DNA of 64,000 nucleotides from a candidate division CPR2 bacterium GW2011_GWC2_39_35 (GCA_000995065.1 LBWX01000001.1:31563-95562); one strand, 5' to 3'; positions 4,193-58,312 are shown, counted from the first letter of the stretch. Notes: generated by a model not told the origin, from the letters alone. Numbers and translations are program-made.

Positions 4193-4198
4193 TATCCT

Positions 4199-4238
4199 TA
4201 AGGAATAAGGAATAAGGAATAAGGAATAAGGAATAAGG
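4199..4238 (+). repeat. (AGGAATA)x5 perfect tandem heptamer array ending in AGG directly abutting the ATG at 4239
   Basis: read directly: ccttAAGGAATAAGGAATAAGGAATAAGGAATAAGGAATAAGGatg. Confidence 0.9.
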
Positions 4239-6164: not shown

Positions 6165-7928
6165 ATGTTGTCAGAAGAGTTAAAAATAGAAATTGGTGAA
6201 GTTGTTACTGTCGGTGAACTGGCGGGAAAGCTTAATGTTCCGGTTAGTAAGGTTATTGGCGAACTAATGAAAAACGGCATAATGGCCACCATAAATGAAA
6301 ACATTGATTTTGAAACAGCGCAAATTATCGGCGAATATTTAGGATTTAACATTGATAGGGAGAGACAAGAAACTGTTAAAGAGGTTGTAGAGAAAAAGAC
6401 TAAATCTTCGGGAAAACTTGTCTCTAGACCGCCAATCGTGGCGGTTATGGGTCATGTTGACCACGGCAAAACAACCTTGCTTGACGCTATTAGAGAGAGT
6501 CGGGTGGCCCAGAAAGAAGCAGGCGGAATTACGCAGCATATTGGCGCCTATCAGGTAGAAAAAAATGGTAAAACGATTACTTTTTTGGACACGCCAGGAC
6601 ATGCTGCTTTCGAAAGTATGAGGGCTCGCGGTGCCGAAGTTACTGACATTGCTATTATCGTAGTGGCGGCGAATGATGGTATAAAACCGCAAACCAGCGA
6701 AGCGATAGACCATGCTAAAAGAGCTAATGTGCCCATGATCGTTGCAATTAACAAAATTGATTTGCCGGAAGCAAATATCGATAGAGTAAAACAGCAATTG
6801 ACTGAAATTGGTCTAATTCCAGAAGATTGGGGCGGCGACGTTATTACCATTCCAGTCTCAGCAAAAGATGGCAAAGGACTGGACGATCTCTTAGAGATGG
6901 TTTTGCTTGTTTCGGGAATCCATAACTTCGAGGCTGAAAAAGGCGGCGAGGCCACCGGTGTAATTATTGAGTCTCATATGGCGGTTGGAAAAGGACCGGT
7001 CGCTACCGTACTTGTCAAAAATGGTACTCTTAAAGTTAGTGATACGATTCAGGCCGGGGCAACATATGGAAAAGTAAAAATCATGGAAGACTATAAAGGA
7101 AAAAGGATAAAAGAAGCAGGTCCGTCAACGCCGGTTAGAATCTCAGGTTTAAAGGCAATTGCCGCGGCCGGAGATATTGTTCAGGTTTTTGCCGATGAAA
7201 GAATGTCGAAGGATCAAGCATTTATTTTTCAAAGGCAACAATCAAGTAAAAAAATATCGGAAGTAAAAAAGCTCGGTCTTGCGGAACTTACAGCTTCGTA
7301 TGAAGCCGGAATGACAAAGGATTTAAATATCATTTTAAAGGCCGATGTTAAGGGTTCGCTTGATGCCATAAAAGAGTCATTAGGTAAGTTTAAAACCCCT
7401 GAAGTGCAGGTAAAGATAATCAGTGAGGGCGTGGGCCTAATAAACGAGTCCGATATTATGATGGCTAAAACCTCAAATGCGCTCGTTATCGGATTTAATG
7501 TGCCTTTAAGCGCCACCATAAATCAGCTGTCGATAAGAGAAAAAGTAAAGGTATTGGGTTACCAAGTTATTTACGAACTCCTAGATGACATCAGAAATGC
7601 TTTAGAATCACTGTTGCCGCCGCTTATTACAGAAGTTACGGTTGGCAAGCTAGAAATCCTAAAAATCTTTAAAACTGCAAAAGGACACATTATCGCTGGA
7701 GGTAAAGTAACTTCCGGAAAACTCGAGAAGGGATTGGAAGTAAAAATTATAAGAAATGCCGAGGAAGAAGGCAAAGGAAAAATTAATTCCGTTAAAAGAG
7801 AAAAAGACGAGGTTAAAGAGTGCGGCATTGGAATGGAATGCGGTTTGAGTATCGAGACCAATGTAAAACTTATGGAAAAAGATATTATAGAAGCATTTAT
7901 ATTAGAGGAGACTAAACGGCACTTATGA
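6165..7928 (+). CDS. infB: translation initiation factor IF-2
   Basis: GHVDHGKTTLLD G1 motif, DTPGH, NKID, C-terminal IF-2 domains; SD AAGGAGG. Confidence 0.9.
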   Translation: MLSEELKIEIGEVVTVGELAGKLNVPVSKVIGELMKNGIMATINENIDFETAQIIGEYLGFNIDRERQETVKEVVEKKTKSSGKLVSRPPIVAVMGHVDHGKTTLLDAIRESRVAQKEAGGITQHIGAYQVEKNGKTITFLDTPGHAAFESMRARGAEVTDIAIIVVAANDGIKPQTSEAIDHAKRANVPMIVAINKIDLPEANIDRVKQQLTEIGLIPEDWGGDVITIPVSAKDGKGLDDLLEMVLLVSGIHNFEAEKGGEATGVIIESHMAVGKGPVATVLVKNGTLKVSDTIQAGATYGKVKIMEDYKGKRIKEAGPSTPVRISGLKAIAAAGDIVQVFADERMSKDQAFIFQRQQSSKKISEVKKLGLAELTASYEAGMTKDLNIILKADVKGSLDAIKESLGKFKTPEVQVKIISEGVGLINESDIMMAKTSNALVIGFNVPLSATINQLSIREKVKVLGYQVIYELLDDIRNALESLLPPLITEVTVGKLEILKIFKTAKGHIIAGGKVTSGKLEKGLEVKIIRNAEEEGKGKINSVKREKDEVKECGIGMECGLSIETNVKLMEKDIIEAFILEETKRHL

Positions 7929-10293: not shown

Positions 10294-11205
10294 TTAAGTT
10301 AGCTGAGATTCGTTAATGCTTCTGTATCCATTAATAAAATCCTTTGAGTTCATTGGATTTTTGCCGGCGGGCTGAATTTCTAGGATTTTTAGAGCAAAAC
10401 TTTTAGTACCGATATATAAATCGCCATTTTCTATCATTACTTTGCCTGCCTCCAGGGTCTTATCGGACACCTCGGCTTTTAAGACGTTTAGTCTTACTTC
10501 TTGCCAGAATGTAAAGGCCAGGGGCCAAGGATAAAAAGCCCTAATCTCTCTTTCTATTTTATCGGCTTTTTTATTCCAGTTTATATGTCCGTCTTCTTTA
10601 TTTATAATCTTGGTGTAAGTTGCCTGAGATTCTTCTTGGGGGTTTGGGACTAGGTTTTTAAAATCATTGATGGTTTTTAATAGTAAGTTAGAGCCATCCT
10701 CAGAAAGATTTTTGGTGAGTGTTTGGGTGGTGTCTGCGGGTGATATTGGAATTCTCGATTGGCTTAATATTGATCCCGCATCCATTTTTGTAGAGATAAT
10801 CATGATCGTGTTTCCCGTTTCTTTGTCGCCATTTAAGATAGCTGCAAGAACAGGGGATGGGCCGCGGTATTTTGGCAAAAGTGAGGGATGAACATTTAAA
10901 GTTGTATATTCTGGTAAATCTAGGATCTCTTGGGGCAGATACTTACCATAAACGGCAACCACAAAAAAGTCAGCTTTTAGCGCCTTGAGATCATCTTCTA
11001 TTCCGCTGACCCTCAAGGGTGTTAAAACATCAATATTTTTATTTAGCGCGAACTCTTTTACCGGAGATGGTACTAGCTTTTTACTCCGACCATGAGGCTT
11101 GTCCGGCTGAGTTACGACGCAGATCACTTGGTGCTCACTTAATAAGTTATTAAGAATATGCTGTGCAAAATCTGATGTTCCAAAAAAGACGATTCTGTAT
11201 TTCAT
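10294..11205 (-). CDS. fmt: methionyl-tRNA formyltransferase
   Basis: MKYRIVFFGTSDFA N-terminus, formyltransferase core (NVHPSLLPKYRG), C-terminal Fmt domain; directly downstream of def. Confidence 0.9.
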   Translation of the reverse strand: MKYRIVFFGTSDFAQHILNNLLSEHQVICVVTQPDKPHGRSKKLVPSPVKEFALNKNIDVLTPLRVSGIEDDLKALKADFFVVAVYGKYLPQEILDLPEYTTLNVHPSLLPKYRGPSPVLAAILNGDKETGNTIMIISTKMDAGSILSQSRIPISPADTTQTLTKNLSEDGSNLLLKTINDFKNLVPNPQEESQATYTKIINKEDGHINWNKKADKIEREIRAFYPWPLAFTFWQEVRLNVLKAEVSDKTLEAGKVMIENGDLYIGTKSFALKILEIQPAGKNPMNSKDFINGYRSINESQLT

Positions 11206-11721
11206 TTAAACCTTCTTTTCTAGAACTAATTTTCCTCGACTGTTTAAAGTGTATATTTGGGAAGAGTCTTTTAAATAGTCTGTAAACAAAATTCCGTTTA
11301 AGTGGTCGATTTCGTGTTGAAGAATTCTTGCAAACATTCCCTCGGCAGCAATTTTAATATCCTTGCCCTCAAGGTTTTTAGCTTTAACTTTTATGCTCTT
11401 AGAGCGCATAATCATACCGTATTTTTTGGGAACACTCATACAGCCTTCTAAATCTTCATTTTCGGTTTTTGACTTCTTAATGATGATGGGATTAATAAGG
11501 GCGATATATTCCTCGTCTTCTTTTAAAACAATCATTCTTTTGGGGATGCCAATCTGAACGGCAGCTAAAGCAACTCCGGCCTCATATTCCGAAGAATAGG
11601 ATTCGATGGTGTCAGCCATTTCGTGAGCGAGTTCTAAAATTTCCGAGTTAATATCATTTATTTCTTCAGATTTTGATCTGAGTATTTTGTCGGGTAATGT
11701 AATTATTTTTTTTGCAGCCAT
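11206..11721 (-). CDS. def: peptide deformylase
   Basis: three PDF motifs GVALAAVQIG, EGCMSVP, QHEIDHLNG; start set at Met (11721) preceded by GAGGT SD rather than the longer track ORF (11754). Confidence 0.9.
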   Translation of the reverse strand: MAAKKIITLPDKILRSKSEEINDINSEILELAHEMADTIESYSSEYEAGVALAAVQIGIPKRMIVLKEDEEYIALINPIIIKKSKTENEDLEGCMSVPKKYGMIMRSKSIKVKAKNLEGKDIKIAAEGMFARILQHEIDHLNGILFTDYLKDSSQIYTLNSRGKLVLEKKV

Positions 11722-11728
11722 ATTTACC

Positions 11729-13726
11729 TCATAATAAGATGTTCTGGGGATCAATATCGATTGAACCTTCGACTCGATGGGAATAATCGCCTAAGAAATC
11801 ATTCAATTCGCTCTCTTTAAGCTTTAGAACTAATAAATAACGGTAGCTATTGTTAATCTTAGGAATAAATGATGGAATGGGCCCTAAAACGTTAAATTTC
11901 GTTTCTAAAAGTCTTTTGTCCTTTGTGGCAGCCAAAAGAGCATCTTTTTGAACTATATTATTATACAGGATTTTTACTAAATTTACAAAGGGGGGATAAT
12001 TGTGATCTTTTCTTATTAGCAACTCCTCGTCATAAAAGTCCCGGGTAAGGTTTTTGGCGGCATATTTTATGGCTTTGTTGTCGGGATTATAAGTTTGAAT
12101 GACGACCCTACCGGGTTTGTCGATGCCACGGCCGGCCCTGCCGGAAACCTGAGTAATAAGCTGAAATGTTCTCTCTTCGGCCCTAAAATCAGGCACAAAT
12201 AAAGTACTATCAGCTGAGATAATTCCCACCAGACTGACGTTTTCGATATCCCATCCTTTAGCGATCATTTGAGTGCCGATTAGGATGTCTGTCTCATGAT
12301 TTTTAAAAGATGAATAAATTTTTTCATGAGAATCTCTTTTTTTAGTGCTGTCTTTATCCATTCTTAGGATGCGGGCTGAGGGGAAAAGCTTATTTAGCTC
12401 ATTCTCTACTTTCTGAGTTCCGGTGCCAAAAAACTTAATATAGGGACCTTTGCAGTTTGGGCAGGTTGTTGGCGGATTGGCTTCGGCTGAGCAGTGGTGG
12501 CAGATAAGTTTATTAGTCAAAAGATGATAGATATACGGGATATCGCAATTAGGACACATAAAAACAAAGCCGCAATCACGGCAAAGCACAAAAGTGGAAG
12601 CGCCACGACGGTTTAGAAATAGAACAATTTGTTCTTTTTTGGCTAATGTTTCTCTTATTTTCCGCGTCAGAATTTCGGAAAAAATACTTTTATTGCCTTT
12701 TTTAAATTCGTCTCTTAGGTCGACGATGGTAGTTTGAGGGAGTAAGCTCTTGGTTGCTCTTTTGGTAAGGTTCAGCATCTTAAAATTATCATTTTTTGCG
12801 TAATAATAAGATTCTAGGGAGGGAGTGGCTGATCCTAAAATAACGGCTGATCCTAAAATTTTTTGTATTTCTAAGGCAATAGTTCTTGTCTGATATCTGG
12901 GCGTCTGGTCTTGTTTAAAGGAATTCTCTTGCTCTTCGTCGATAACAATTAAGCCTAAATTTTTCAGCGGTGCAAAAATAGCAGACCTAGATCCGATGAC
13001 AATCGGTTTTTCGTTGTTATGAATTTTCTGCCAGGTTTTAAACTTTTCCGTTTCTTTTAACTTGGAGTGCCAGACAGCAATCTTTCCCGGAAAACGGCTT
13101 TCGAAAACGGAATAAGTTTGAGGGGTAAGAGAAATTTCAGGGACCAGCACAATCACTTGTTTCCCTCTATTTAAAACCTCTTCTATGGCGCGAAGATAAA
13201 CCTCAGTTTTTCCGGAGCCGGTGATTCCCATCAGAAGGAAAGTCTTAGATAAATCTTCGGTAATGCTCTTCTTAATTTCATTAAAGGCATATTGTTGCTC
13301 GGGATTTAGCTTATGAAAGTCTGTCTTCTTAATTTCCTTTTCTTTCGTTTCTTTTGCTTGCCTATTTTTACTAAATGAATTAAAAGGAATTACGGTGCCA
13401 AGCGATTGTCTAAGGGAAGAAACGCAATTAGTTTGAAGAAAAAAAATAATTTTAATTAGATGAGCGGGGATTGGGTTTTCTTCGACGATAGTTTGGATAT
13501 CCTTGGTGCTAAAGGCAGGTTTTTCATTCGTAATTTTAATTACTAACCCCTTTAATTTGCGCTTATTAAAAAAGACCGTAACAATTTGGCCAACTTTAAT
13601 GTTGCTTCTCAGTTCTGGCGGTACGCCATAAGTAAATAGATCGTTATTATTTTTGGTATAGGTGAAGACCGCAATCTGAGCATAAATCATGAGCACATGA
13701 TAGCATGATAAGAGCTCGAATGCCAT
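11729..13726 (-). CDS. priA: primosomal protein N' (replication restart helicase PriA)
   Basis: Walker A GITGSGKTEVY, DEEQ box, Cys-rich zinc-binding insert (CRDCGF..CPNCD...CHHC...CPNC), C-terminal PriA domain; start may be internal Met (~13690). Confidence 0.9.
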   Translation of the reverse strand: MAFELLSCYHVLMIYAQIAVFTYTKNNNDLFTYGVPPELRSNIKVGQIVTVFFNKRKLKGLVIKITNEKPAFSTKDIQTIVEENPIPAHLIKIIFFLQTNCVSSLRQSLGTVIPFNSFSKNRQAKETKEKEIKKTDFHKLNPEQQYAFNEIKKSITEDLSKTFLLMGITGSGKTEVYLRAIEEVLNRGKQVIVLVPEISLTPQTYSVFESRFPGKIAVWHSKLKETEKFKTWQKIHNNEKPIVIGSRSAIFAPLKNLGLIVIDEEQENSFKQDQTPRYQTRTIALEIQKILGSAVILGSATPSLESYYYAKNDNFKMLNLTKRATKSLLPQTTIVDLRDEFKKGNKSIFSEILTRKIRETLAKKEQIVLFLNRRGASTFVLCRDCGFVFMCPNCDIPYIYHLLTNKLICHHCSAEANPPTTCPNCKGPYIKFFGTGTQKVENELNKLFPSARILRMDKDSTKKRDSHEKIYSSFKNHETDILIGTQMIAKGWDIENVSLVGIISADSTLFVPDFRAEERTFQLITQVSGRAGRGIDKPGRVVIQTYNPDNKAIKYAAKNLTRDFYDEELLIRKDHNYPPFVNLVKILYNNIVQKDALLAATKDKRLLETKFNVLGPIPSFIPKINNSYRYLLVLKLKESELNDFLGDYSHRVEGSIDIDPQNILL

Positions 13727-13824
13727 TAGTAAGAGGGACTTATACGAGATACTAGATACTATTTTATCTCTTTACTTTTCCCTAAAATTTGCCTATGATA
13801 TCTCATGATTAATTAAAGGCAGAT

Positions 13825-15132
13825 ATGAAAAGAAGATGGCTAAAAATAGTAGGAATTTTTTTGTTGGCAGCAATATGTTTTGTAGCCGCATCTCCCCAGT
13901 CCGTTAGAGACAAAATGAAAATAAGAATGTTAAAGCCGGTCCATTTACGGCTAGGACTTGATCTTCAGGGTGGTTCACACATTGCCTATGAAGCGGATTT
14001 AAGCAAGTTTAAGGACGTGTCGGAAAAAGAAAGGGCCATGGAAAGCCTGAGAAATGTGGTTGATAAAAGAGTTAATGCGCTTGGAGTGGCAGAACCAAAT
14101 ATTTATACAACTAAATTTGGTGATAATAGGCGTATAATAATAGAGCTTCCTGGAATTGATGTAAATCAGGCTAAAGATCTAATTGGTAAGACGGCAAAAA
14201 TGAAATTTAAGACCCAAATGAATGAAGAAGGAACAATGTGGCAGGATACGGATCTAGAAGGCAAAAATTTAAAGAAAGCCACCGTGCAAAATGATCCGCA
14301 AACGAATTCGCCGGAAGTGGCCATAGAATTTGATTCCGAAGGAGCCACCAAATTCGGAGACCTCACCAAAAATAATTTAGGTAAAAGAATTGGAATATTT
14401 TTAGATGACGAGATCGTATCTGCACCGACAGTGCAGGCAGAAATTAGAGATGGTCATGCTGTCATTTCTGGAAAATTCGATTATAAAGAAGCCAATGATT
14501 TAAAAATTCAGCTTAATGCAGGCGCCCTACCCGTTGATATCAAATTAGTCGAAGAAAGAACTGTAGGTGCGACATTGGGTCAGGAATCGGTTAGAAAAAG
14601 TTTTTTTGCCGGCACTATTGCCTTGCTTGTCATTTTTATGTTTATGACTATTTATTATAGATTCCCAGGCTTTATTGCTTCTGTAGCTTTGGGTATCTAC
14701 ACCCTAATTGTAATCGCGATCTTTAAGGGCGCTTTTTACATTTTTCCGCCAGTTACGCTCACTTTAGCAGGAATTGCGGCCTTTATCTTGTCTATCGGCA
14801 TGGCCGTCGATGCTAATATCTTGATTTTCGAAAGAATGAAAGAGGAATTTAGGTTAGGAAAGGGTTATGGAGCAGCCTTAGATGCCGGTTTTAAGAGGGC
14901 ATGGCCGTCTATAAAGGATTCAAATATCGCAACGTTTATTACTTGTGCGATCCTTATGGCTTTTGGGTCCACAGTTATTAAGGGCTTTGCCTATACGCTT
15001 TTAATAGGGGTTGCCGTATCGATGTTTACTGCGATCACAATCACCAGAACATTTTTAAAGGCATTTATTAATACCAGAATTTCCAAAAATCCAAAATTAT
15101 TTGGCTTTGCAATAGAAAAGGGAGAGAAATAA
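13825..15132 (+). CDS. secD: protein translocase subunit SecD
   Basis: signal-anchor N-terminus, large periplasmic domain, six C-terminal TM helices with SecD/SecF signature; abuts secF. Confidence 0.9.
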   Translation: MKRRWLKIVGIFLLAAICFVAASPQSVRDKMKIRMLKPVHLRLGLDLQGGSHIAYEADLSKFKDVSEKERAMESLRNVVDKRVNALGVAEPNIYTTKFGDNRRIIIELPGIDVNQAKDLIGKTAKMKFKTQMNEEGTMWQDTDLEGKNLKKATVQNDPQTNSPEVAIEFDSEGATKFGDLTKNNLGKRIGIFLDDEIVSAPTVQAEIRDGHAVISGKFDYKEANDLKIQLNAGALPVDIKLVEERTVGATLGQESVRKSFFAGTIALLVIFMFMTIYYRFPGFIASVALGIYTLIVIAIFKGAFYIFPPVTLTLAGIAAFILSIGMAVDANILIFERMKEEFRLGKGYGAALDAGFKRAWPSIKDSNIATFITCAILMAFGSTVIKGFAYTLLIGVAVSMFTAITITRTFLKAFINTRISKNPKLFGFAIEKGEK

Positions 15133-48556: not shown

Positions 48557-49657
48557 ATGTCTAAAAAAATACTATTTAAAAACTTCGACTGGGTACTTTT
48601 TGCGGTAGTAGGGCTCCTAATTAGTTTTGGTCTTCTAACTATTTACAGCACGGCTTTTGCGGAGACGGACGCCAAAGGAAATAAAGCTATATCTCAAGCA
48701 GTTTTCGCTGCTCTTGGTTTTATATTAGTCTTTGTTTTTGCAAAAATTGACTATCGGGTTTTCAGAAAGTTTACCGGACTCTTTTATGTCATTATGATTG
48801 CTTTATTGCTGGTGGTTGAATTTGCCGGTTCTAATGTTCTGGGTGCTACAAGATGGATTAATCTTGGTTTTTTTCAGCTGCAGCCATCAGAAGTCGCTAA
48901 AATTATATCTATTATCATCCTAGCAAAGTATTTTTCAGATCATAATGAAGAAATGTGGCGGGTTAAACATATAATCATTTCGGGGATATACATTATAATT
49001 CCCGTTTTAATGGTGGCGAAACAGCCCGACCTTGGAACCGCTATTGTTATCTTTTCTATTTGGCTGGGTATGCTTTTTGTTTCGAATGTCAAGAGGTCTA
49101 CTCTAATTAAAATGGCTGGGATCGGTCTAGCTATTCTTCCCCTTATGTGGTTTACGCTTCATGATTATCAAAAAAATCGAATATTAACGCTTTTTAGTCC
49201 GGATGCTGATGTATTGGGAAAAGGATGGAATGTAGAACAGGCAAATATAGCTATTGGATCGGGACAGTTTTTTGGCCGCGGTTTTGGTTATGGTTCGCAA
49301 AGCCATTTAAATTTCTTACCAATGCAGCATACTGACTTTGCATTTGCAGTTTTAGCCGAAGAAATGGGATTTTTAGGCTCCGTAATTCTTATTGGACTCT
49401 ATTTCTTATTGCTTTATCGTGTTCTAGCAATCGCAAAGTCATCCAGAGACAGTTTCGGTATGTTTATTGCAACAGGAACTGCCGTCATGTTTTTTGTCCA
49501 TATCTTTGTAAATATAGGTATGAATATAAGGCTTATGCCGGCTACGGGTATCCCGCTGCCTTTTATTAGCGCTGGCGGGACAGCAATCCTTATTAACCTC
49601 GCAGCGATTGGAATCTTGGAAAGCATTTATTCCAGACATAAGAAGATTGATTTTTAA
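48557..49657 (+). CDS. ftsW: SEDS-family peptidoglycan glycosyltransferase (FtsW/RodA)
   Basis: 10-TM topology, SEDS-family polytopic architecture and size (366 aa); motif identity not checked. Confidence 0.85.
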   Translation: MSKKILFKNFDWVLFAVVGLLISFGLLTIYSTAFAETDAKGNKAISQAVFAALGFILVFVFAKIDYRVFRKFTGLFYVIMIALLLVVEFAGSNVLGATRWINLGFFQLQPSEVAKIISIIILAKYFSDHNEEMWRVKHIIISGIYIIIPVLMVAKQPDLGTAIVIFSIWLGMLFVSNVKRSTLIKMAGIGLAILPLMWFTLHDYQKNRILTLFSPDADVLGKGWNVEQANIAIGSGQFFGRGFGYGSQSHLNFLPMQHTDFAFAVLAEEMGFLGSVILIGLYFLLLYRVLAIAKSSRDSFGMFIATGTAVMFFVHIFVNIGMNIRLMPATGIPLPFISAGGTAILINLAAIGILESIYSRHKKIDF

Positions 49658-49737
49658 ACGGACCGCTTGTTGTTATTTATCCTTGACGAAAGGCGAATAA
49701 TTTGTTATTCTATTTACGGTACTTTTAAGGAGAACTC

Positions 49738-50109
49738 ATGTCAGAAGAGACTAAAACAGCTGAAAAGAAAGAAGTAAAAAAGGCGGGAAAATCCAGCCGT
49801 TTTGCTGTTATTGAAACAGGTGGAAAACAATATATTGTACGTGAAGGCCAGAGGATCGAGGTGGAACTTTTGGCAGACGCAAAAGAAGGCAAGGATCTGA
49901 CTCTTGACGCACTGCTTGTTGGCGACGACAAAACCGTTAAGGTTGGCAAGCCGATGGTAGAAAAAGCGACCGTTAAAGTTAAAGTGTTAGGGGATATTAA
50001 AGGAGAAAAGCTTATTGTATTTAAATACAAAGCAAAGAAAAACCAAAGAAAAAAAACCGGTCACAGACAAAAATACACTGAGCTTGAAATCACAAAGATC
50101 GAAATCTAA
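49738..50109 (+). CDS. rplU: 50S ribosomal protein L21 (with N-terminal basic extension)
   Basis: FAVIETGGKQYIVREGQRIEVE L21 core; no rpmA (L27) follows. Confidence 0.9.
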   Translation: MSEETKTAEKKEVKKAGKSSRFAVIETGGKQYIVREGQRIEVELLADAKEGKDLTLDALLVGDDKTVKVGKPMVEKATVKVKVLGDIKGEKLIVFKYKAKKNQRKKTGHRQKYTELEITKIEI

Positions 50110-50175
50110 TTTAAAACAGAATTTTTATGAAAAGCTGCTTCAAAAGGGCAGTTTTTTTGATACAATAGTTTTTGC

Positions 50176-50682
50176 ATGAATAAAGATTTATCAAAAATTA
50201 AGCATATGGCCGGTCTTATCATGGCTGTCCTATTTATTATTATTTCTCTTTATTCGTCCCAATATGATAGATCAGGAGTATCTGATGATGTTGCAGTCAA
50301 AAAAGTCGTTGACGGCGATACCGTGATACTTACAAATGACGAAAAGGTTAGATACATCGGCATCGACACGCCCGAGACCAAACATCCCAAGAAAGAAATT
50401 CAATGTTTCGGAAAAGAAGCTGCGGCTAGAAATAAGGAGCTAGTTGAAGGTAAAAAGGTAAAGCTCGAAAGGGATATTTCGGAGCGAGACAAGTATGGCC
50501 GCCTGCTTAGATATGTTTATTTAGAAGATAGTACATTCGTAAATCTACTTCTTGTAAAAGAAGGGTATGCTAGAGCTTCGACTTATCCGCCGGACATAAA
50601 ACATCAAAATGACTTTTTAGAGGCGGAAAGAGAGGCAAGGGGAAATAATCGAGGATTGTGGAATGCAGAAGCTTGTAATTAA
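50176..50682 (+). CDS. membrane-anchored thermonuclease (SNase/micrococcal nuclease family)
   Basis: N-terminal TM, SNase core VVDGDTVIL..VRYIGIDTPE...RYVYLED..NLLLVKEGYA. Confidence 0.8.
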   Translation: MNKDLSKIKHMAGLIMAVLFIIISLYSSQYDRSGVSDDVAVKKVVDGDTVILTNDEKVRYIGIDTPETKHPKKEIQCFGKEAAARNKELVEGKKVKLERDISERDKYGRLLRYVYLEDSTFVNLLLVKEGYARASTYPPDIKHQNDFLEAEREARGNNRGLWNAEACN

Positions 50683-50818
50683 TAACTTGAAAAAAATACT
50701 CTATCATGGTAAATTTTAAATGTATGAAAAAACGATTACAGATCAATGGGAAAGCATGGTGGGTCTGGCAAAAGTAAGCCGGGAGATTTTGTGATCTAAA
50801 TTTAATAAATAAGTAACA

Positions 50819-50841
50819 AGCTCCCGATGGGAGATTTTTTT
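50819..50841 (+). terminator. short hairpin CTCCC-GAT-GGGAG followed by ATTTTTTT
   Basis: read directly; region also contains direct repeats CGATGGGAGAT x2. Confidence 0.45.
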
Positions 50842-51012
50842 GCTTAAAATCTCCTCTTACGATGGGAGATGTTATGTTTAGATTGCAGTAGATGAAGATA
50901 ATACATTGAAATCGAGTGAAGTACATTACAAATCTAATAAGCCCGAAATTTGGGATGAAATAAAGAGCGCGTAAGTTTAGAAACTGGCTGTCCACGACTT
51001 AGGGAGGGTGAG

Positions 51013-51276
51013 ATGAGTAAGAAGATGGAACCAAAAAAGCTTGGGGGAAGAAAAACAAATGTTAGAAATATAAAACGAAGGAGTGAAGATCCAAGGAAAT
51101 TAAGTGCTGAGATAGCTGATCACATGAATGAAAGAGCAAGAATCGGTAAAAAAATCGAAGCAAGTGAATACCCCAAAAGAAAGGCACGTCGAGTCAAAAC
51201 ACGAATTACAGAGTTAAATTTTCTAATTGAGGAGAAAATGAATCTTTTTTCAAAAGCGATTGCTTCTGCAAACTGA
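51013..51276 (+). CDS. hypothetical highly basic small protein (87 aa)
   Basis: GGGAGGG SD then ATG; K/R-rich (RKTNVRNIKRRSEDPRK...RKARRVKTR); no recognisable domain. Confidence 0.4.
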   Translation: MSKKMEPKKLGGRKTNVRNIKRRSEDPRKLSAEIADHMNERARIGKKIEASEYPKRKARRVKTRITELNFLIEEKMNLFSKAIASAN

Positions 51277-51316
51277 CACGTATTAATAAGCGGAACATTG
51301 TTATTTTAGAAAAGCA

Positions 51317-51772
51317 TTGGCGACATCCATGGAAGGAGTAATCATAACAATGCAAGCACCGAAAAAGGGGATAAAGCCTACGGGTCATGTAAAGAAGGCA
51401 AAGCGAAGATGTTTTACGAATCTGCATGCAACCACCCTGGCTAGGCAAATATCTGTTACAGTTATGAAGGGACAATTTCTATTACCTTGTATAGATTTAT
51501 CTTATCTATCTAATTATAGGGTTTGGCGCATTATAGATAGGATTAAAACGATCAATTGTGAAATAGAGGTTGTAGAAATACGGTTAAAAATGGCATTTGA
51601 ACCAGTAGATGTTTTAGGCGAAATGGCAAAAATAAAGAATGCGCTTATCTTAAAACGCTGCTATCTTGCAAGATTTTATGAAGAAATCAGAGACATTCAA
51701 ACTAGCCTGGAGTATCCTGATTACTATCAGATGATGCCAAGAACAACCTTAGATCCGACGACGATAAGATAA
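51317..51772 (+). CDS. hypothetical protein (151 aa)
   Basis: intact ORF followed by strong terminator at 51780-51829; no recognisable domain. Confidence 0.4.
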   Translation: MATSMEGVIITMQAPKKGIKPTGHVKKAKRRCFTNLHATTLARQISVTVMKGQFLLPCIDLSYLSNYRVWRIIDRIKTINCEIEVVEIRLKMAFEPVDVLGEMAKIKNALILKRCYLARFYEEIRDIQTSLEYPDYYQMMPRTTLDPTTIR

Positions 51773-51779
51773 CAAATTA

Positions 51780-51829
51780 CCCCAAGGAAAACGCGCATAG
51801 TCGCAAAATTTTCCTTGGGGCTGTTTTTT
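51780..51829 (+). terminator. rho-independent terminator: 12-bp stem CCCCAAGGAAAA/TTTTCCTTGGGG then CTGTTTTTT
   Basis: read directly, 8 nt after stop of 51317..51772. Confidence 0.55.
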
Positions 51830-51840
51830 GGAAAAAAGGC

Positions 51841-51869
51841 TTGACTTGCAACACAAAGCCGGATAAAAT
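51841..51869 (+). promoter_or_regulatory. sigma70-like promoter TTGACT-17-TAAAAT
   Basis: hexamers and exact 17-nt spacer read directly. Confidence 0.55.
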
Positions 51870-51875
51870 ATGTAT

Positions 51876-52022
51876 CGATGAAGCAATTAACCAACCTCAT
51901 TCAAATCAGCGTAATGATGCTCGTGGTGAAGGAAAGCCACGGAAGGTTAGTGTTGTCTGAATCGTAAAGTTTAGAAAGAGCATAGCTCAAGAAGAACCAA
52001 CCTTCCAAGCGGAAGGTTTTTT
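51876..52022 (+). ncRNA. candidate ~150-nt small transcript bracketed by promoter (51841) and terminator (52001-52022); contains a possible 30-codon hydrophobic peptide ORF (51878-51970, MKQLTNLIQISVMMLVVKESHGRLVLSES)
   Basis: promoter and terminator geometry only; no SD before the small ORF. Confidence 0.35.
52001..52022 (+). terminator. hairpin CCTTCC-AAGC-GGAAGG followed by TTTTTT
   Basis: read directly. Confidence 0.6.
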
Positions 52023-52032
52023 GATTGCATGC

Positions 52033-52107
52033 GGAAGTATGGGCAAATGGCAAGCCGTCGGCCAAACATGCCGAAATCCGAGGGTTCGAATCCCTCTACT
52101 TCTACCC
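52033..52107 (+). tRNA. tRNA-like gene with canonical acceptor stem, D-arm (GG), 5-bp anticodon stem and GGTTCGAATCC T-arm, but non-canonical anticodon loop CAAACAU (A at position 33; nominal anticodon AAC)
   Basis: manual cloverleaf: 1-7 GGAAGTA pairs 66-72 TACTTCT (one G-U), T-arm GAGGG-TTCGAAT-CCCTC, discriminator A, then CCC (no encoded CCA). Confidence 0.45.
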
Positions 52108-52236
52108 AAGAAGCTAAGCAAAAGTTTGGCTACATAGTACCTTTACTTATTCAACCGAAGACCAAATGATCATTTATTGTCTGACACCGTGGGAAAAGTT
52201 ATTGTAGGCAGAAATTAGGACAAACAGGAGGGAACA

Positions 52237-52515
52237 ATGGTTAAAGAAAGAGGAAGATTTGACGTAAACCCAGCGCTAGAAGGGAATGAAAGCCAATTTA
52301 GCAAGTTAAGCCATGAAGTCTTGCGAGTCGAGAACAAAATAAAGCGTCTCGAAACACATGCGTCAATGTTGCTAAAGCACCAGAAAGCAGCGGCCGATCC
52401 AAAGATACATGATGAGTTGATTGAAAAAACAAAAGAAGATATCCGGCGGCTTATGCCGCAATTAAATCTTCTACAATCAGAAATCGATCGTTGCTTAAGT
52501 CTCAACCCATGCTAA
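52237..52515 (+). CDS. hypothetical coiled-coil small protein (92 aa)
   Basis: AGGAGGG SD then ATG; heptad-like charged sequence; followed by 14-bp perfect hairpin. Confidence 0.4.
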   Translation: MVKERGRFDVNPALEGNESQFSKLSHEVLRVENKIKRLETHASMLLKHQKAAADPKIHDELIEKTKEDIRRLMPQLNLLQSEIDRCLSLNPC

Positions 52516-52540
52516 TATAAGCTAACGGTTAACAAAAGTC

Positions 52541-52580
52541 AGGACCTATTTAGATTAGAGATAGTCTCTAAATAGGTCCT
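52541..52580 (+). other. perfect 14-bp inverted repeat AGGACCTATTTAGA / TCTAAATAGGTCCT with internally palindromic loop (TAGAGATAGTCTCTA); terminator or protein-binding palindrome
   Basis: read directly; not followed by a T-run. Confidence 0.4.
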
Positions 52581-52624
52581 GAGAACAACTCAAGAGACGC
52601 AGGTGGTGATTATGACTGTATTGA

Positions 52625-52879
52625 TTGGAGGAGATAGACATGGGGATGCCAAGGACTAGCATATGTGGAGTAAATATGCCCTTAGTTGAGGCAACAAAAG
52701 AGCAAATCGACTTGGTTAAGAAGTGTTACGAAACTAAGGGTGAGCGCGGTGCGGAGTGTGCTATTAATGGCGAGAAGATTTGCAAGTACGGCTTGCCCGT
52801 AATTTGCCGCCTTAGAAACGGGCACGACTATAATCCGAAGAAACCGGAAGAGTGTGCAAAACTTTCCATTGTTGGTTAA
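52625..52879 (+). CDS. hypothetical small cysteine-rich protein (6-7 Cys in ~75 aa)
   Basis: Cys at ICGV, KKCY, AECA, KICK, VICR, EECA; start ambiguous (several in-frame Met); convergent with copA. Confidence 0.45.
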   Translation: MEEIDMGMPRTSICGVNMPLVEATKEQIDLVKKCYETKGERGAECAINGEKICKYGLPVICRLRNGHDYNPKKPEECAKLSIVG

Positions 52880-52994
52880 CCGAGAAAAGGAGTTTTGTTG
52901 GACAATAGAGAGGAGCGTGAATTATGAGGGGTTTTAAGAAAAAAGTTTATATATAAATATAAACCCCTCTAACCGCGCTCTTTTTATTTTGTCT

Positions 52995-55211
52995 TTATAG
53001 AGTTTTTTTCTTCAAAAGCAATGAATTTGTTACCACGGAAACGCTAGAAAAGCCCATGGCGAGCCCAGCTAGTTCCGGAGTAAGCAGAAGTCCAGTAGCG
53101 GGGTAGAGGACTCCAGCGGCCACGGGAATTCCAATAACATTATAGAAAAAAGCCCAGAAGAGATTTTGCTTTATTTTCGTCATAGTAAGTTTCGACAACC
53201 TAATGGCCCTGACCGCATCCATCAAGTTATTTTTAACAAGCACGATGTCTCCGGCTTCAATTGCAATATCCGTACCGGCGCCAAGAGCAATACCAACGTC
53301 AGCTTGAGTTAAAGCTACGGAATCATTAATACCGTCTCCAACCATCGCCACAATCTTGCCATTTTTTTGCAGTTCCTTTATTTCTTTAGCTTTTTCGTAC
53401 GGCAAGACTTCAGCAATAACTTTTTTTATACCAACTTTATTCGCTACTGCTTGAGCGGTTATCTTATTGTCTCCGGTTATGATTATGGTTTCGATATTCA
53501 TCTTATGTAACTTTTGAATCGCATCTTTTACGTTTTCCTTTAAGGTATCGGCGACGGCAATTGCCCCGATTATTTCATTGTTTAAGCCAATAATCATCAC
53601 TGTTTTACCATCAATTTCCAGCGAAGAAATTTTTTGTTCAATTTCTTCGGTAATTCTAATATTTTCGGTTTTAAAGAGACTTCTATTTCCTAGCATTGCA
53701 CTCTTACTATTAAGTTTCCCCTCGATACCTTTACCGGGAATAGCTTTAAAGTCCTCGACATCTTTTAATTTGATTTTTTTAAACTCAACATAGGTATCAA
53801 TAGCTTCGGCCAATGGATGTTCGCTAAATTTTTCGAGAGTTCCTGCCACTTCCAAAACATCAGTTTCTTGATTTTTATCAAAGGAGATTATATCAGTGAC
53901 TTCCGGCTTGCCTTTGGTTAGAGTCCCTGTTTTATCAAAAACTACTGTCGTTAATCTTTGGGCAATTTCTAGTGAAGCTGCGGATTTAATTAGGATGCCG
54001 TTTTCGGCGCCTTTTCCGGTGCCCACTATGATGGCTGCTGGGGTGGCAAGACCAAGGGCGCAAGGACAGGCAATAACCACCACTGCAATTGCTGTAAGAA
54101 GTGAGAACGTAAAAGTTTGGTCTACCACGAAATACCAAACGATAAATGTAAAGAGCGACAATATAAGCACCGTTGGTACAAAATAAGCCGAAACCGTGTC
54201 TGCAATTCGCTGTATTGGTGCTTTAGAGCCTTGCGCTTCTTCGACGAGTTTTACGATTTGCGCCAAAACGGTACCTTCACCAACCAAAGAAGTTTTTACC
54301 TTAATTGCTCCAAACTTATTAATCGTAGCACCAATTACTTTATCGCCGGGTTTTTTCTCTACCGGAATCGGCTCGCCAGAGATCATAGACTCATCAACCG
54401 ACGTTAGGCCTTCTATTATAACTCCATCAACTGGTATCTTCTCTCCAGGCCTAATTAGGACAATATCTCCAACTTTTACGTCGTCAATTGGAATATCGTA
54501 TTCTTTACCGTCTTTTATAACTCTGGCGGTTTTTGATTTTAGTTCAAGGAGCTTTTTTATTGCTTCGCCGGCTTTACCTTTTGCATTAGTCTCTAATAGT
54601 TTGCCAAGCAAAATAAAGGTGATAAGCAGCGCTGCGATCTCGTAAAACACGATCCCCGAGACAAAGAAAGTCGAAATTACAGAATAGAAATAGGCGGCAG
54701 AAGTGCCAACTACCACCAAGGTGTCCATATTAGACGTTTTGTTCTTTAAAGCGACTAAGGCTCCTTTATAAAAAGACGCGCCGGAGATAAACTGAACCGG
54801 AGTTGTGAGGGCAAATAGCAGTAGCTTTCGGTTTGGAAAATCCATTAGAAAATCGATGTTTAAGCCGAATACCTTAAATACATGAGGCATCGAAATCACA
54901 AAAACCGGAATAGATAGTAATGCTGCCAGAATAAAACGCCTAAGCAACATATAATAGTCTTTGCTTTTGTCTTTTTCTTTTTCGGTCGAGATAATTTGGG
55001 ATTCTTCGGCATCATAACCGACTTTTTTAACAATATTTATTAATTTATTAGTGTCTGTTTTAGCAGGATCGTACAATACGCTGGCCTTTTCTGAAGCAAG
55101 GTTGACGCTAGCCTCAGTTACGCCCTCGCTCTTTAGAAGCGCTTTTTCGACATTAATAGCGCAACTGGCGCAATGCATTCCCTTTATAATGAGTTGTTCC
55201 TTCTTAGTCAA
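52995..55211 (-). CDS. copA: copper-translocating P1B-type ATPase
   Basis: N-terminal HMA domain [18 protein letters not shown] transmembrane metal site ([11 protein letters not shown]), DKTGTLT phosphorylation motif, GDGINDS. Confidence 0.9.
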
Positions 55212-55401
55212 TCTATGCTCCAGTGCATACCTCTAATTTTGTTGATAATGTTATTCATCTATCCTCCTTAAGTTTACAAAACCCATTATAATTACAGTTA
55301 TCTTTGATTGCTAGGGTGTTTCAAAAAAACCAATTTCTTTCCTTAAAACCAATTTTATGCTTCCATCTTTATTTAAGAGTTGCTATAATCGTGAGCGTTA
55401 T

Positions 55402-55579
55402 GAAAAGAAACTGGCTAAGCATATTTTTTATCTGTATACTCATTATTTTATTTGCAAAGGTTTACAATGCTAAGTCCTTTAAGGATTTAGGCGCCGTCCT
55501 CAGTGCCGTAGCAGGCTCAACTTTTGCCTTAATAATAACAAAAGCCCTAGTAAGATTAAAAGATGCAGATGATAAATAA
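55402..55579 (+). CDS. hypothetical small secreted/membrane peptide (59 aa) (tentative)
   Basis: TATAAT -10 at 55385-55390 then ATG; signal-peptide-like MKRNWLSIFFICILIILFAKVYNA; the longer track ORF start (55304) lacks signals. Confidence 0.3.
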
Positions 55580-55695
55580 TTTTATTTTCAAATTAGCTGT
55601 TTAAAAATTGTACATTTAAAATCTAATAGTTGCTAGCATTAATGAAATTCAACAATTTGAGTGGGGTGGAGTGAGAATGCGCGTCAATTTAAGGC

Positions 55696-56052
55696 ATGAC
55701 GTATGGGAAACAAGATCGCTGGAGAAAAAAAAGGAACCTTATCGTAAAGGTTACAAGCAGGCAGTTCGAAGCTATTCGCCATATTTTTACGAAAGCTATT
55801 GCGGATGGTGGTATGGCTAATTATTCCTTAAATGAATTAAAGGTAGTGCTTGGGCTAGAAAACAGTGCTTTTCGTTCTCTTATAAAAGCATTGCACATGA
55901 ATAAAAGGCTCATTAACGTTGCTGGAGATGAATATAGCATTAATCATAAGAAGCTTATAAGCATAAAGGAAATAGTTGTTGTAAACGGCTCTGGTAGCCA
56001 TCATCCTACGGGTAAGAAATGGATTGGCGAAACTGGACAATTTAAAAACTAG
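55696..56052 (+). CDS. hypothetical protein (118 aa)
   Basis: intact ORF, no recognisable domain. Confidence 0.35.
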   Translation: MTYGKQDRWRKKRNLIVKVTSRQFEAIRHIFTKAIADGGMANYSLNELKVVLGLENSAFRSLIKALHMNKRLINVAGDEYSINHKKLISIKEIVVVNGSGSHHPTGKKWIGETGQFKN

Positions 56053-56297
56053 CCTCCTTTTCTGCGCAATGAACGTTTCTACAAAAAGAGCTTGGTATGA
56101 CAAGAAACCGGCTCTTTTTTATTTTTAAATTTAATTAACGCTTCTTATGATTGATATTTAGCGCTCTTTATGTTATGCTATAATGTTTTTATAAACTAAA
56201 GAAAAAATAGCTTTAAATGTCCTTTAACATTCTCGGTAAACGGCTAATGGCCGATTAACAAATACATAATCTTGTATCCTAGGTTGCGTCTTAGTTA

Positions 56298-56894
56298 TTG
56301 GAGGCAAAAATGTTAGCAATGAAAGCAGTATGTGTCCCGGATTCCTTGGTCTCAATCAACGATCCGCGTATTGGTGAGGAAAAACCTGCCAAGACGAGCG
56401 AAGTGTCGAGATTAAGATGGGAATTAGGAGGTATCGGATTTAAGGAGAGACACGACTTTGTCTTTTGGGATGAAGAAAAAGAAAGGCTAAAAGTTGAAAA
56501 TGGACAGCAAGGCGCAATAAAACTTACGAAGAATCAATTCATCGATGTACTTGAGGGCCGTCACGAAATTCCGGAATGGGCGAGAACAAGGATAGTCGAA
56601 TGGGTAACTGCCTGGACTGGACCGAGCGATCAGTTTGATTGCGATGATTTTTTCAATATCGACAAGAGAATTGAGGCGCAAGTAAATAAGATTACGGCCC
56701 TCGGATTTACTAATCCAGACGAAGTCCCATACTCTTCTCTTCTAAGAAAAGAGCTTTCTAGGCTGAGAAAAATCAGAGAAGCAAAAAGGATGGCTGATCT
56801 TAAGGATCGTTATATGATTAAAGATCCCGATCGGCTTAAAGTCTTTCAGAAAACTATGAAGAAGCATCATATTAACTATTGGTCGCCGATTTAA
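56298..56894 (+). CDS. hypothetical protein (~195 aa; likely ATG start at 56309 or 56318 rather than TTG 56298)
   Basis: GGAGG SD at 56300-56304; intact ORF followed by GC-rich hairpin terminator at ~56915-56950; no recognisable domain. Confidence 0.5.
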   Translation: MEAKMLAMKAVCVPDSLVSINDPRIGEEKPAKTSEVSRLRWELGGIGFKERHDFVFWDEEKERLKVENGQQGAIKLTKNQFIDVLEGRHEIPEWARTRIVEWVTAWTGPSDQFDCDDFFNIDKRIEAQVNKITALGFTNPDEVPYSSLLRKELSRLRKIREAKRMADLKDRYMIKDPDRLKVFQKTMKKHHINYWSPI

Positions 56895-56975
56895 TCTCAG
56901 AAGTATTTGTTTCAAAGCGCCCCTAAGGGAGTTGTTTGCCCCGGGCGCTTTAATTTTGTACAATAAATACAATAT

Positions 56976-57467
56976 ATGACAAAAGATTATTACAACGTTA
57001 TAAAACAGTTTAGTGATAAGCTTCCCAAGTTTCCGGATGGCCGGATTAATTATAGCGGCACAAATAGGGCGCCGGTAATTAATGCCCTCGTAAAATATAG
57101 AGACGAAATTTTAATTTTAAAAAGAAGTGATAAGGTTGCTAATTATAAAGGGAAATGGAATTCTATAGGCGGTTTTTTGGATGAAGCAAAGCCCTTAAAA
57201 CAAAAGGTTTTAGAAGAGGTAAATGAAGAACTTGGCATCACCGAAGATGAAATTGAAGAAGCGAGATTATTTGAAAGCTATGTATTTTATGATGAGTCAA
57301 TTGATAAAACCTGGATCAGTTTTCCGGCATTAATCGAACTTAAGGTTAAGCCTGAAATAAAGCTAGACCAGGAACACACAGATTATAAGTGGATTAAACC
57401 GGAAGATCTAAAAAAATACGAATTTATTCCAGGGCTAGATGAGGCAATAAAGAAGATTCTGAAATAG
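56976..57467 (+). CDS. NUDIX hydrolase
   Basis: Nudix box GGFLDEAKPLKQKVLEEVNEELGI (G-x5-E-x7-REUxEExGU pattern). Confidence 0.8.
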   Translation: MTKDYYNVIKQFSDKLPKFPDGRINYSGTNRAPVINALVKYRDEILILKRSDKVANYKGKWNSIGGFLDEAKPLKQKVLEEVNEELGITEDEIEEARLFESYVFYDESIDKTWISFPALIELKVKPEIKLDQEHTDYKWIKPEDLKKYEFIPGLDEAIKKILK

Positions 57468-57544
57468 TATGTATAGTGAGAGGCTATAACTAAATTAGAT
57501 TAAATGCTTTATAATTTAGTCGTTTTGCGATAGAATACATTTGT

Positions 57545-58312
57545 ATGATAACAATTGCTCTTACAAACCAAAAAGGCGGAGTTGGTAAAACAACCACTGC
57601 CATCAATCTGGCAGCTTATTTAGGTAAATACGGAAAACGTGTGCTTTTAGTTGATTTAGATCCTCAAGCCAATTCCTCGAGCGGCCTTGGCTTAGACATA
57701 AGATCTCTGAAGGCAGGTCTTTATGATGTAATTGTCGGCGAGGTACCTATTGCGGACGCAATTTTAAAAGTTGATACTAAAAACTTAAATATCATCCCTT
57801 CTGATCCCACTTTGGCTGCCGCCGAAGTGGAGTTAGTTGGAACGATGGGCAGGGAATCTAGACTTAAAAAGGCTTTGGAAGGTGTACAGGAAAGGTACGA
57901 TTTTTGTCTCATCGATTGTCCACCATCCTTAAGTCTGCTTACATTAAATGGCTTAGTGGCTGCCGATAGGGTAATTATTCCGGTCCAAAGCGAATATTAC
58001 GCCCTTGAAGGTCTTGGACATTTGCTTCATACTATAGATCGGGTTAGAATGAATTTAAACCCGTATTTAAAAATACTTGGAATAGTTCTTACAATGTATG
58101 ACCATAGAACGGTGCTATCGCAGCAAGTCCAGGTAGAAGTTAAAAAACATTTTGCAGATAAATTATTTAATTCTTTAATACCAAGGAACATCCGCCTGGC
58201 AGAGGCGCCGAGTCATGGTAAAAGCATTTTGCAATATGACAGATTCTGCAAAGGAGCCTCGTCATACAAAAGCTTAGCAAAGGAGGTAATAGAGAGATGT
58301 CAAAAGGATTAG
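57545..58312 (+). CDS. parA: chromosome partitioning ATPase ParA/Soj
   Basis: deviant Walker A KGGVGKTTT, ParA family length and motifs. Confidence 0.9.
   Translation: MITIALTNQKGGVGKTTTAINLAAYLGKYGKRVLLVDLDPQANSSSGLGLDIRSLKAGLYDVIVGEVPIADAILKVDTKNLNIIPSDPTLAAAEVELVGTMGRESRLKKALEGVQERYDFCLIDCPPSLSLLTLNGLVAADRVIIPVQSEYYALEGLGHLLHTIDRVRMNLNPYLKILGIVLTMYDHRTVLSQQVQVEVKKHFADKLFNSLIPRNIRLAEAPSHGKSILQYDRFCKGASSYKSLAKEVIERCQKD

Follow-up and report, generated by a model that had tools for sequence, protein, structure and literature searches.

A leader with its own promoter-like site and terminator precedes a tRNA gene

The locus analysed here is a short leader and the tRNA gene behind it, at positions 51841-52106 of a window of 64,000 nucleotides (nt), the whole stretch of DNA examined, from a candidate division CPR2 (Patescibacteria) bacterium of groundwater. 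Coordinates are window positions on the plus strand unless stated otherwise. The leader opens with a promoter-like site of sigma-70 type (51841-51869), composed of TTGACT (51841-51846), a 17-nt spacer and TAAAAT (51864-51869). It scored 10/12 in a consensus scan, the best value between 50000 and 54000. In the whole window, 39 sites on both strands scored at least 10/12 (about one per 3.3 kb of strand), and at this background rate the chance of finding one on this strand in this 450-nt spacer is about 0.1. Eleven of the 39 fell in the intergenic 14% of the sequence, several of them correctly placed before genes; sigma-70-type promoters thus seem to be used here.

At its 3′ end the leader carries a terminator (51999-52022): an 8-bp stem, AACCTTCC/GGAAGGTT (51999-52018), with the loop AAGC and six T (52017-52022). 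It folds at -11.1 kcal/mol (z = -3.1) and is one of eight strict terminators in the 128 kb of strand of the window. Another intrinsic terminator lies upstream at 51780-51829, with a 12-bp stem, CCCCAAGGAAAA/TTTTCCTTGGGG (51780-51827), followed by CTGTTTTTT (-21.2 kcal/mol, z = -3.76). It is predicted to end the orphan gene at 51350-51772 and to insulate the unit from upstream transcription. The 150-nt transcript between promoter and terminator folds at -39.8 kcal/mol (z = -3.15), and none of 200 shuffles folded as well. A first-pass annotation of the window had proposed a near-consensus promoter, a clean terminator and an insulated upstream gene; all three were recovered, and a discrete transcription unit bracketed by promoter and terminator appears plausible. 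Among the covariance models of Rfam 15, only tRNA passed on this region. The best of the others stayed below 23 bits (E 0.03-6), and the 17 bits obtained with Phe_leader, against a cutoff of 55, came from the terminator only.

The tRNA gene, presumed to be the regulated gene, occupies 52033-52106 and begins 10 nt after the T-run. It was called by ARAGORN, scored 56.3 bits with the Rfam tRNA model and folds into a cloverleaf. U33 is near-universal in tRNAs, and A35, C36 and A73 are valine identity elements in E. coli. Here the anticodon loop is CAAACAU, with A33 and the anticodon AAC, and A35, C36 and A73 are present. The gene keeps U8, A14, G18, G19 and the T-loop, has a G1-U72 wobble and does not encode CCA; its sequence is identical in all of the 16 public assemblies that we retrieved. 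The gene described as aberrant and tRNA-like in the first-pass annotation is hence a real one (56 bits), yet with A33 and anticodon AAC. ANN anticodons are reported to be nearly absent from prokaryotes (bioRxiv 10.64898/2026.05.15.725136).

By consensus scan, no promoter of at least 9/12 was found in the 14-nt gap that separates terminator and tRNA, nor in the leader. Two small genes with Shine-Dalgarno sequences were called further downstream, at 52237-52515 (92 amino acids, aa) and 52640-52879 (79 aa). No promoter of at least 9/12 was found between the tRNA and 52237, nor before either of these small genes, and the two may therefore share the tRNA transcript by read-through. The 92-aa protein had no homologue anywhere; the 79-aa protein, for which the search was a family scan, had no family match.

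Both arms of the terminator are repeated upstream

We observed that AACCAACCT occurs twice in the leader (51889 and 51995) and that CGGAAGGTT does so as well (51940 and 52010), the second copy of each being one arm of the terminator. Four regions were defined accordingly. Region 1 (51889-51899, AACCAACCTCA) repeats without mismatch the first 9 nt of region 3 (51995-52006, AACCAACCTTCC), the terminator 5′ arm. Region 2 (51940-51951, CGGAAGGTTAGT) is an exact 9-nt copy of region 4 (52009-52022, GCGGAAGGTT), the terminator 3′ arm with its T-run. Between regions 1 and 2 (51908-51941) lie two small hairpins, P2 (51908-51921) and P3 (51922-51941). The order 1-2-3-4 thus permits three pairings: 1:2, a long helix P1 around P2 and P3; 2:3, an antiterminator; and 3:4, the terminator. 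These copies, which make an antiterminator possible, had been missed in the first-pass annotation, as had the short distance of 10 nt from the T-run to the tRNA and the lack of a promoter-like site in the gap before it.

When the upstream 118 nt were shuffled with their composition preserved, 1 of 300,000 shuffles contained both 9-nt arm copies in this order; either copy by itself turned up about 1-2 times per 1000. A duplex as stable as 2:3 (-14.1 kcal/mol) was reached in 22 of 2000 dinucleotide shuffles (1.1%), and the antiterminator domain as a whole (51940-52008) reached z = -4.2, with 0/200 shuffles as good. This is the single one of the eight strict terminators of the window whose 5′ arm has a partner upstream (0/300 shuffles; 0.08-1.0 for the others). 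Folding of the growing transcript gave P1 as the best structure up to about 51990 and the antiterminator as the minimum-energy structure at 52008, while the minimum-energy fold of the complete leader is the terminator together with P1. The repeats are limited to the pairing segments: their flanks are not repeated and the offsets differ (106 versus 70 nt), so that a simple tandem duplication does not explain them.

The hexamer CGGAAG, found 28 times in the 64-kb strand, occurs three times within 93 nt here (51940, 52010 and 52032). The third copy spans the 5′ end of the tRNA and the longer form GCGGAAG stands at both 52009 and 52031; the terminator 3′ arm thus mimics the tRNA start. A reading of the leader as a degenerate tandem copy of the tRNA was dropped, as local alignment did no better than shuffles (307/500). 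A reading of the repeated hairpin as a REP-like family was likewise dropped: the window contains no further copies.

The leader contains a small open reading frame with leaderless geometry

A small open reading frame (ORF) at 51878-51967 would encode the proposed leader peptide, MKQLTNLIQISVMMLVVKESHGRLVLSES. The 30-codon ORF of the first-pass annotation is thus present, with one correction: the peptide has 29 aa, and the 30 codons include the stop (51965). The ORF covers region 1, and codons 11-21, among them GTA ATG ATG CTC GTG GTG, fall in P2 and P3. No Shine-Dalgarno sequence precedes its ATG, which stands 8 nt after the -10 box TAAAAT.

We examined this geometry in the other genes of the window. 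In 7 of 19 genes without a Shine-Dalgarno sequence, a TAnnnT hexamer ends 6-9 nt ahead of the start codon; this holds for none of 41 genes with such a sequence and for 9% of random ATGs. Leaderless mRNAs therefore appear to be common in, and often used by, this genome. The seven genes include rodA, parA, the genes for signal peptidase and for a nuclease (SNase), and a gene at 44357; examples of such starts are 44357, 48557, 50176, 57545 and 59799 (minus strand). A full -35/-10 promoter was identified by scan for the SNase gene and the gene at 44357, and by eye for rodA and the signal peptidase gene. By the same geometry the small ORF is likely to be translatable. A precedent exists among leader-peptide attenuators: in Corynebacterium glutamicum, the valine-containing leader of ilvBNC is described as translated without a ribosome-binding site (PMC4046766).

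The codon usage of the ORF is atypical. It has the rarest leucine and valine codons (CTC twice, GTG three times) and never uses GTT, the commonest valine codon. No gene caller predicted it on 16 public contig stretches.

Ribosome position is predicted to decide between terminator and antiterminator

We modelled the effect of a translating ribosome by covering -15 to +12 nt around the A-site codon and forbidding pairs that span the ribosome. In this model, region 2 was free with any of codons 1-17 in the A site and the 2:3 pairing had a probability of 0.97-0.99; from codon 19 onward region 2 was covered and the probability fell to 0.08 or less. A ribosome at the stop codon was placed within the would-be 2:3 loop. 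The final six sensing codons are GUA AUG AUG CUC GUG GUG, the tandem GUG GUG ending 13 nt before region 2.

Four computed features enter the mechanism: the sequence elements themselves, their alternative pairings with the associated rarity, the leaderless-type geometry, and the lack of a promoter-like site between terminator and tRNA. From these we infer transcription of the unit, translation of the ORF, a stalling signal and a purpose for the tRNA. Transcription would start about 7-9 nt after TAAAAT, at or beside the AUG at 51878. A transcript starting at 51876-51878 would offer a 5′ AUG, on which a ribosome would load while the RNA is nascent and translate the 29-codon ORF. The four segments of the leader, region 1 AACCAACCU, region 2 CGGAAGGUU, region 3 AACCAACCUUCC and region 4 CGGAAGGUU followed by U6, would pair in the style of the trp leader as 1:2 (P1), 2:3 (antiterminator) or 3:4 (terminator). 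With no ribosome, or with one at the stop codon (51965), region 2 would be held in P1 or the 2:3 loop would be occupied; the 3:4 hairpin would then form and transcription would end at about 52022. A ribosome stalled with one of codons 1-17 in the A site would block 1:2 and leave region 2 free for the 2:3 antiterminator, the last six stall codons being GUA AUG AUG CUC GUG GUG, several of them rare. Once 2:3 is formed, RNA polymerase would read into the tRNA gene and probably also into the two small genes beyond.

The interpretation that we tentatively favour, with a confidence short of even, is that the leader of a tRNA operon contains a conditional terminator acting in cis, which is probably sensed by a ribosome on the leaderless 29-codon ORF. 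It is built on one sequence and on computation.

Two other tRNAs with the same anticodon loop also follow terminator-like hairpins

A metagenome scan with a pattern specific to the window tRNA gave no match, the same pattern matching the window itself. A relaxed scan, which combined the CAAACAU loop with a common T-loop, returned 113 loci. Only two of them, L117 (coordinates 3106-3233) and L175 (14124-14242, minus strand), held genuine tRNAs with the same 7-nt loop, and the bodies of these tRNAs are unrelated to that of the window tRNA. In both, which come from uncultured genomes unrelated to that of the window, a terminator-like hairpin ends 22-29 nt upstream of the tRNA. No such hairpin preceded any of 167 further tRNAs from the fetched loci or any of 263 from viral loci. 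The recurrence suggests a link between the terminator and the odd tRNA.

In L117, the terminator 5′ arm has a significant upstream partner (7/1000 shuffles), located inside a 21-codon ORF whose ATG stands 8 nt after a -10-like hexamer. In L175 an antiterminator partner was not significant (187/1000 shuffles). No Rfam family was found in either leader. The L175 tRNA heads a same-strand cluster (10967-14197, minus strand) that encodes a divergent class I aminoacyl-tRNA-synthetase-like protein of 515 aa as well as a SAM methyltransferase and a radical SAM enzyme, and it may be devoted to a pathway outside the ribosome. Elsewhere in L175, a weak match to a T-box leader (6615-6807; 37.6 bits, below the gathering threshold of 93) precedes an ORF at 6979-7911.

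In the most specific version of the mechanism, which we regard as distinctly doubtful, a translation-sensing attenuator would gate a non-canonical tRNA (A33, an anticodon that starts with A, valine identity elements) that is made only when ribosomes stall. Such a tRNA might then act as a conditional back-up or have a role outside the ribosome.

These loci also bear on a different explanation, in which the transcript of about 145 nt (51877-52022) is a stand-alone, trans-acting small RNA (sRNA), the ORF is incidental and the tRNA is produced only by leakage through the terminator or from a promoter that the scan did not recognise. Bacterial sRNAs usually end in a terminator hairpin with a U-tail, and the clean bracketing by promoter and terminator, the structured transcript (z = -3.15) and the insulation of the upstream gene by its own terminator are all in keeping with it. 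What an sRNA leaves unexplained are the copies of the terminator arms upstream, the lack of a promoter-like site for the tRNA 10 nt downstream and the terminators before the same odd type of tRNA elsewhere. Moreover, no Rfam family matched even at E = 10, no target can be proposed and no conservation was seen. We consider this explanation unlikely, while giving it real weight.

Points that weigh against a conditional terminator, and a ribosome-independent version of it

Several results count against the conditional terminator in the tRNA leader, and we gather them here. The first concern the switch itself. The P1-P2-P3 domain alone is only modestly unusual (z = -2.0). In the nascent RNA without a ribosome, the antiterminator is preferred at equilibrium (P = 0.82), so that the default 'off' state hinges on folding kinetics. 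The repeated arms could in principle stem from an old duplication and not from selection for switching.

A second group concerns the sensor. The small ORF could be a chance reading frame: for an ATG in this position with 29 open codons behind it, we estimate a probability of about 1.5%. No single amino acid forms a run in the peptide; the last six codons for sensing specify three valines, two methionines and one leucine, and the sensing valine codons, GUA and GUG, would not be read by an AAC anticodon unless modified.

A third group concerns the target. The regulated gene is a tRNA and not a gene for amino-acid biosynthesis or a synthetase, and we know of no precedent for attenuation controlling a tRNA gene. 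Nothing for the biosynthesis, transport or charging of an amino acid lies downstream, where we found the tRNA and two small ORFs without a family. The tRNA, with its A33, might be a decaying gene, and the baseline for a terminator before a tRNA within Candidate Phyla Radiation (CPR) genomes is thin, with six tRNAs.

Finally, the leader is known from one population only. No homologue of it was found by blastn and nhmmer on 80 genome loci anchored on RodA, and blastn against phage and plasmid collections gave no match to the RNA locus.

The same switch could also be worked without translation. In a riboswitch-like or factor-dependent attenuator, the P1-P2-P3 junction would be the sensor and the ORF would stay untranslated; candidate ligands are a small molecule, a protein (for example one of several basic orphan proteins encoded upstream) or an RNA such as this very tRNA. 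The alternative pairings fit this scheme equally, being the same, and P1-P2-P3 has the three-helix junction layout general to small aptamers. Two further points speak for it: AAC, the tRNA anticodon, occurs in regions 1 and 3, GUU, its codon, in regions 2 and 4, and the third of the three clustered CGGAAG copies forms the 5′ end of the tRNA. Riboswitch classes are normally conserved across many genomes, whereas this leader is unique to one population and carries no signature of any known riboswitch or of a T-box, even at E = 10. The modest z of P1-P2-P3 counts against it too, and such a sensor leaves unexplained why an ATG stands at the exact leaderless position and is followed by a 29-codon open frame. 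We regard this version as quite unlikely.

The peptide does not resemble a type I toxin

In the first-pass annotation, the ORF was taken to encode a hydrophobic peptide of the size and character of a type I toxin or membrane microprotein, possibly within an addiction module. We did not find support for either proposal. The best 19-residue Kyte-Doolittle window of the peptide was 1.07, compared with 2.2-2.5 for TisB, Fst and Ibs (values from sequences entered by hand). The N-terminal hydrophobic patch, LIQISVMMLVV, has 11 aa, too short for a membrane helix, and the longest stretch without a charged residue, His, Gln or Asn is 8 aa. An antisense promoter, which the annotation had suggested looking for, was absent: the consensus scan, the one search applied, gave none of at least 9/12 on the minus strand of 51841-52100. 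The peptide matched nothing in Pfam, PHROGs, PADLOC or NCBIfam, libraries that cover such short peptides poorly. On the hydropathy value, the short patch, the lack of an antisense promoter and the lack of a match in these four profile libraries we rejected the type I toxin, for which a very small residual probability is kept.

Comparison with the type I toxin-antitoxin modules hok/sok, tisB/istR-1, fst/RNAII and ibs/sib led to the same view. They share with the locus an ORF of about 30 codons, a hydrophobic N-terminal part, a structured mRNA and a position in accessory DNA. The locus differs in having no segment of transmembrane length, no antisense promoter and no family match; conversely, it has terminator-arm copies and a tRNA 10 nt downstream, which these modules do not.

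A broader form of the proposal is a plain small-protein gene, with a leaderless mRNA that encodes the 29-aa peptide and ends at its own terminator, the product being perhaps membrane-associated or a type I toxin. The leaderless geometry speaks for it, as do the hydrophobic patch and an open frame that ends 31 nt before the terminator. Besides the results on hydropathy, antisense promoter, families and gene calling given above, the atypical codons and the unusual degree of structure in the coding region argue against it, and the duplicated terminator arms would be left unexplained. We judge such a gene improbable. Should the locus prove inert, it would show that a short ORF of hydrophobic appearance between a clean promoter and terminator is insufficient for calling a type I toxin.

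Relation to known regulatory systems

Leader-peptide attenuators (trpL, ilvL, ivbL, hisL and pheL of E. coli, ilvBNC of C. glutamicum) served as the comparison set for the ribosome-sensed terminator. The order of promoter, short leader ORF, intrinsic terminator and regulated gene is shared, and so are four segments with mutually exclusive 1:2, 2:3 and 3:4 pairings (here in silico) and an ORF that runs over region 1 and stops before region 3. The trpL leader carries tandem Trp codons, to which GUG GUG, about 13 nt before region 2, can be likened. A leaderless start is shared with the ilvBNC leader as described in PMC4046766. The locus differs from all of them in serving a tRNA and orphan ORFs instead of biosynthesis or synthetase genes, in having no strong run of a single amino acid, in an ORF that runs through region 2 too, and in its restriction to a single population with no match to a leader family in Rfam. 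A comparison with a supposed attenuator before E. coli pheV was dropped, since the sequence has a plain promoter directly upstream of that gene.

With T-box riboswitches the locus shares a decision between terminator and antiterminator in a leader linked to tRNA. It also carries the cognate codon of its tRNA, GUU, and twice the 5′ acceptor sequence of that tRNA, CGGAAG. T-boxes precede synthetase, biosynthesis and transporter genes, whereas this leader precedes a tRNA gene. It is also much shorter (about 145 nt), has no Stem I/specifier or T-box sequence, and was not matched by the Rfam T-box model up to E = 10.

Finally, SgrS/SgrT, RNAIII/delta-haemolysin and SR1/SR1P resemble the locus as short, structured, terminator-ended transcripts with a small ORF. 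These are dual-function sRNAs; at this locus we saw no sign of base pairing in trans, and the internal repeats point to a switch in cis.

If true, the conditional terminator would extend trp-type attenuation to the supply of a tRNA, and this in a CPR bacterium, a group in which gene regulation is, to our knowledge, almost unstudied. It would add to the evidence for routine leaderless translation in these organisms, and tight conditional expression could explain how a tRNA with A33 and an ANN anticodon is tolerated.

The locus lies in a lineage-specific insert

Identical proteins were found on contigs including LBXJ01000031, LBXK01000044 and MEST01000024, named GW2011_GWD1_39_7 or GWD1_39_7. 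The segment 51780-52236 is 100% identical across 16 independent public assemblies from several distinct samples, which excludes an assembly error and makes the sequence reliable. Over 20 kb of the same 16 contig stretches the population is nearly clonal and gives no polymorphism signal; the comparative information from its own population is thus nil.

The leader and the tRNA lie in an insert of about 7.4 kb (50110-57545) between rplU and parA that is specific to this CPR2 lineage. In four relatives with RodA identities of 60-67% (L018, L221, L222 and L223), the gene order is ileS-rodA-rplU-parA-parB-lepB-lytR, with rplU directly followed by parA. The nearest RodA in the protein database outside the own population is 71% identical, and in the closest RodA relatives (60-71% identity) the insert is absent or the contig ends at that spot. 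In one of these, CG2_30_37_16, three independent assemblies all break at the same place just after rodA. The insert comprises a staphylococcal-type nuclease, small ORFs without a family, the leader with its tRNA, and genes for a Cu-ATPase and a Nudix protein. Of the ORFs that flank the RNA, the two that were searched (140 aa and 92 aa) had no homologues. Viral contigs were scanned for exact patterns taken from the anticodon arm of the tRNA, from hairpin P3 and from the T-arm/acceptor, and all matches were due to chance or unrelated (a coding region, a transfer-messenger RNA and an unrelated stretch without a tRNA).

The accessory islet perceived in the first-pass annotation is thus real, as the four relatives with adjacent rplU and parA indicate. 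The possibility, raised there, of a mobile or addiction module is without support: no integrase-like gene was recognised among the scanned ORFs of the insert (part of it was scanned), and 49600-58000 contains no att-like repeat of 14 nt or more that matches the 3′ end of the tRNA.

The setting raises the question of whether the leader and tRNA are inert relics in a recently acquired, decaying islet: a chance promoter-like site, an orphaned terminator and a degenerating tRNA. A lineage-specific insert of 7.4 kb, flanking ORFs without a homologue, a tRNA without the near-universal U33, no demonstrable conservation and the background density of 10/12 promoter-like sites (about one per 3.3 kb of strand) are what such relics would leave. 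Against decay, both arm copies jointly have a probability of about 3 in a million, and their limitation to the pairing segments argues against a recent neutral duplication. The tRNA keeps U8, A14, G18, G19 and its T-loop at 56 bits, and the locus is invariant in 16 independent assemblies from several samples, though the population is nearly clonal. On balance inert relics seem unlikely.

Some further features were noted around the locus. A perfect 16-bp inverted repeat (TCAGGACCTATTTAGA / TCTAAATAGGTCCTGA; 52539-52582) directly follows the ORF of 92 aa; a T-run is lacking on the plus strand, and CTTTTGTT is present on the minus strand. The 79-aa protein (52640-52879) has seven cysteines and no family match, and its gene is convergent with that of the Cu-ATPase (52995-55211). 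The closest relatives of this Cu-ATPase (at most 65% identity) sit in a different context, next to csoR/cupredoxin genes, and the csoR, HMA-DsbD and cupredoxin partners that adjoin them are missing here. Far from the locus, at about 4195-4238, the Shine-Dalgarno-like unit AAGGAATA stands five times in tandem directly before an ATG at 4239.

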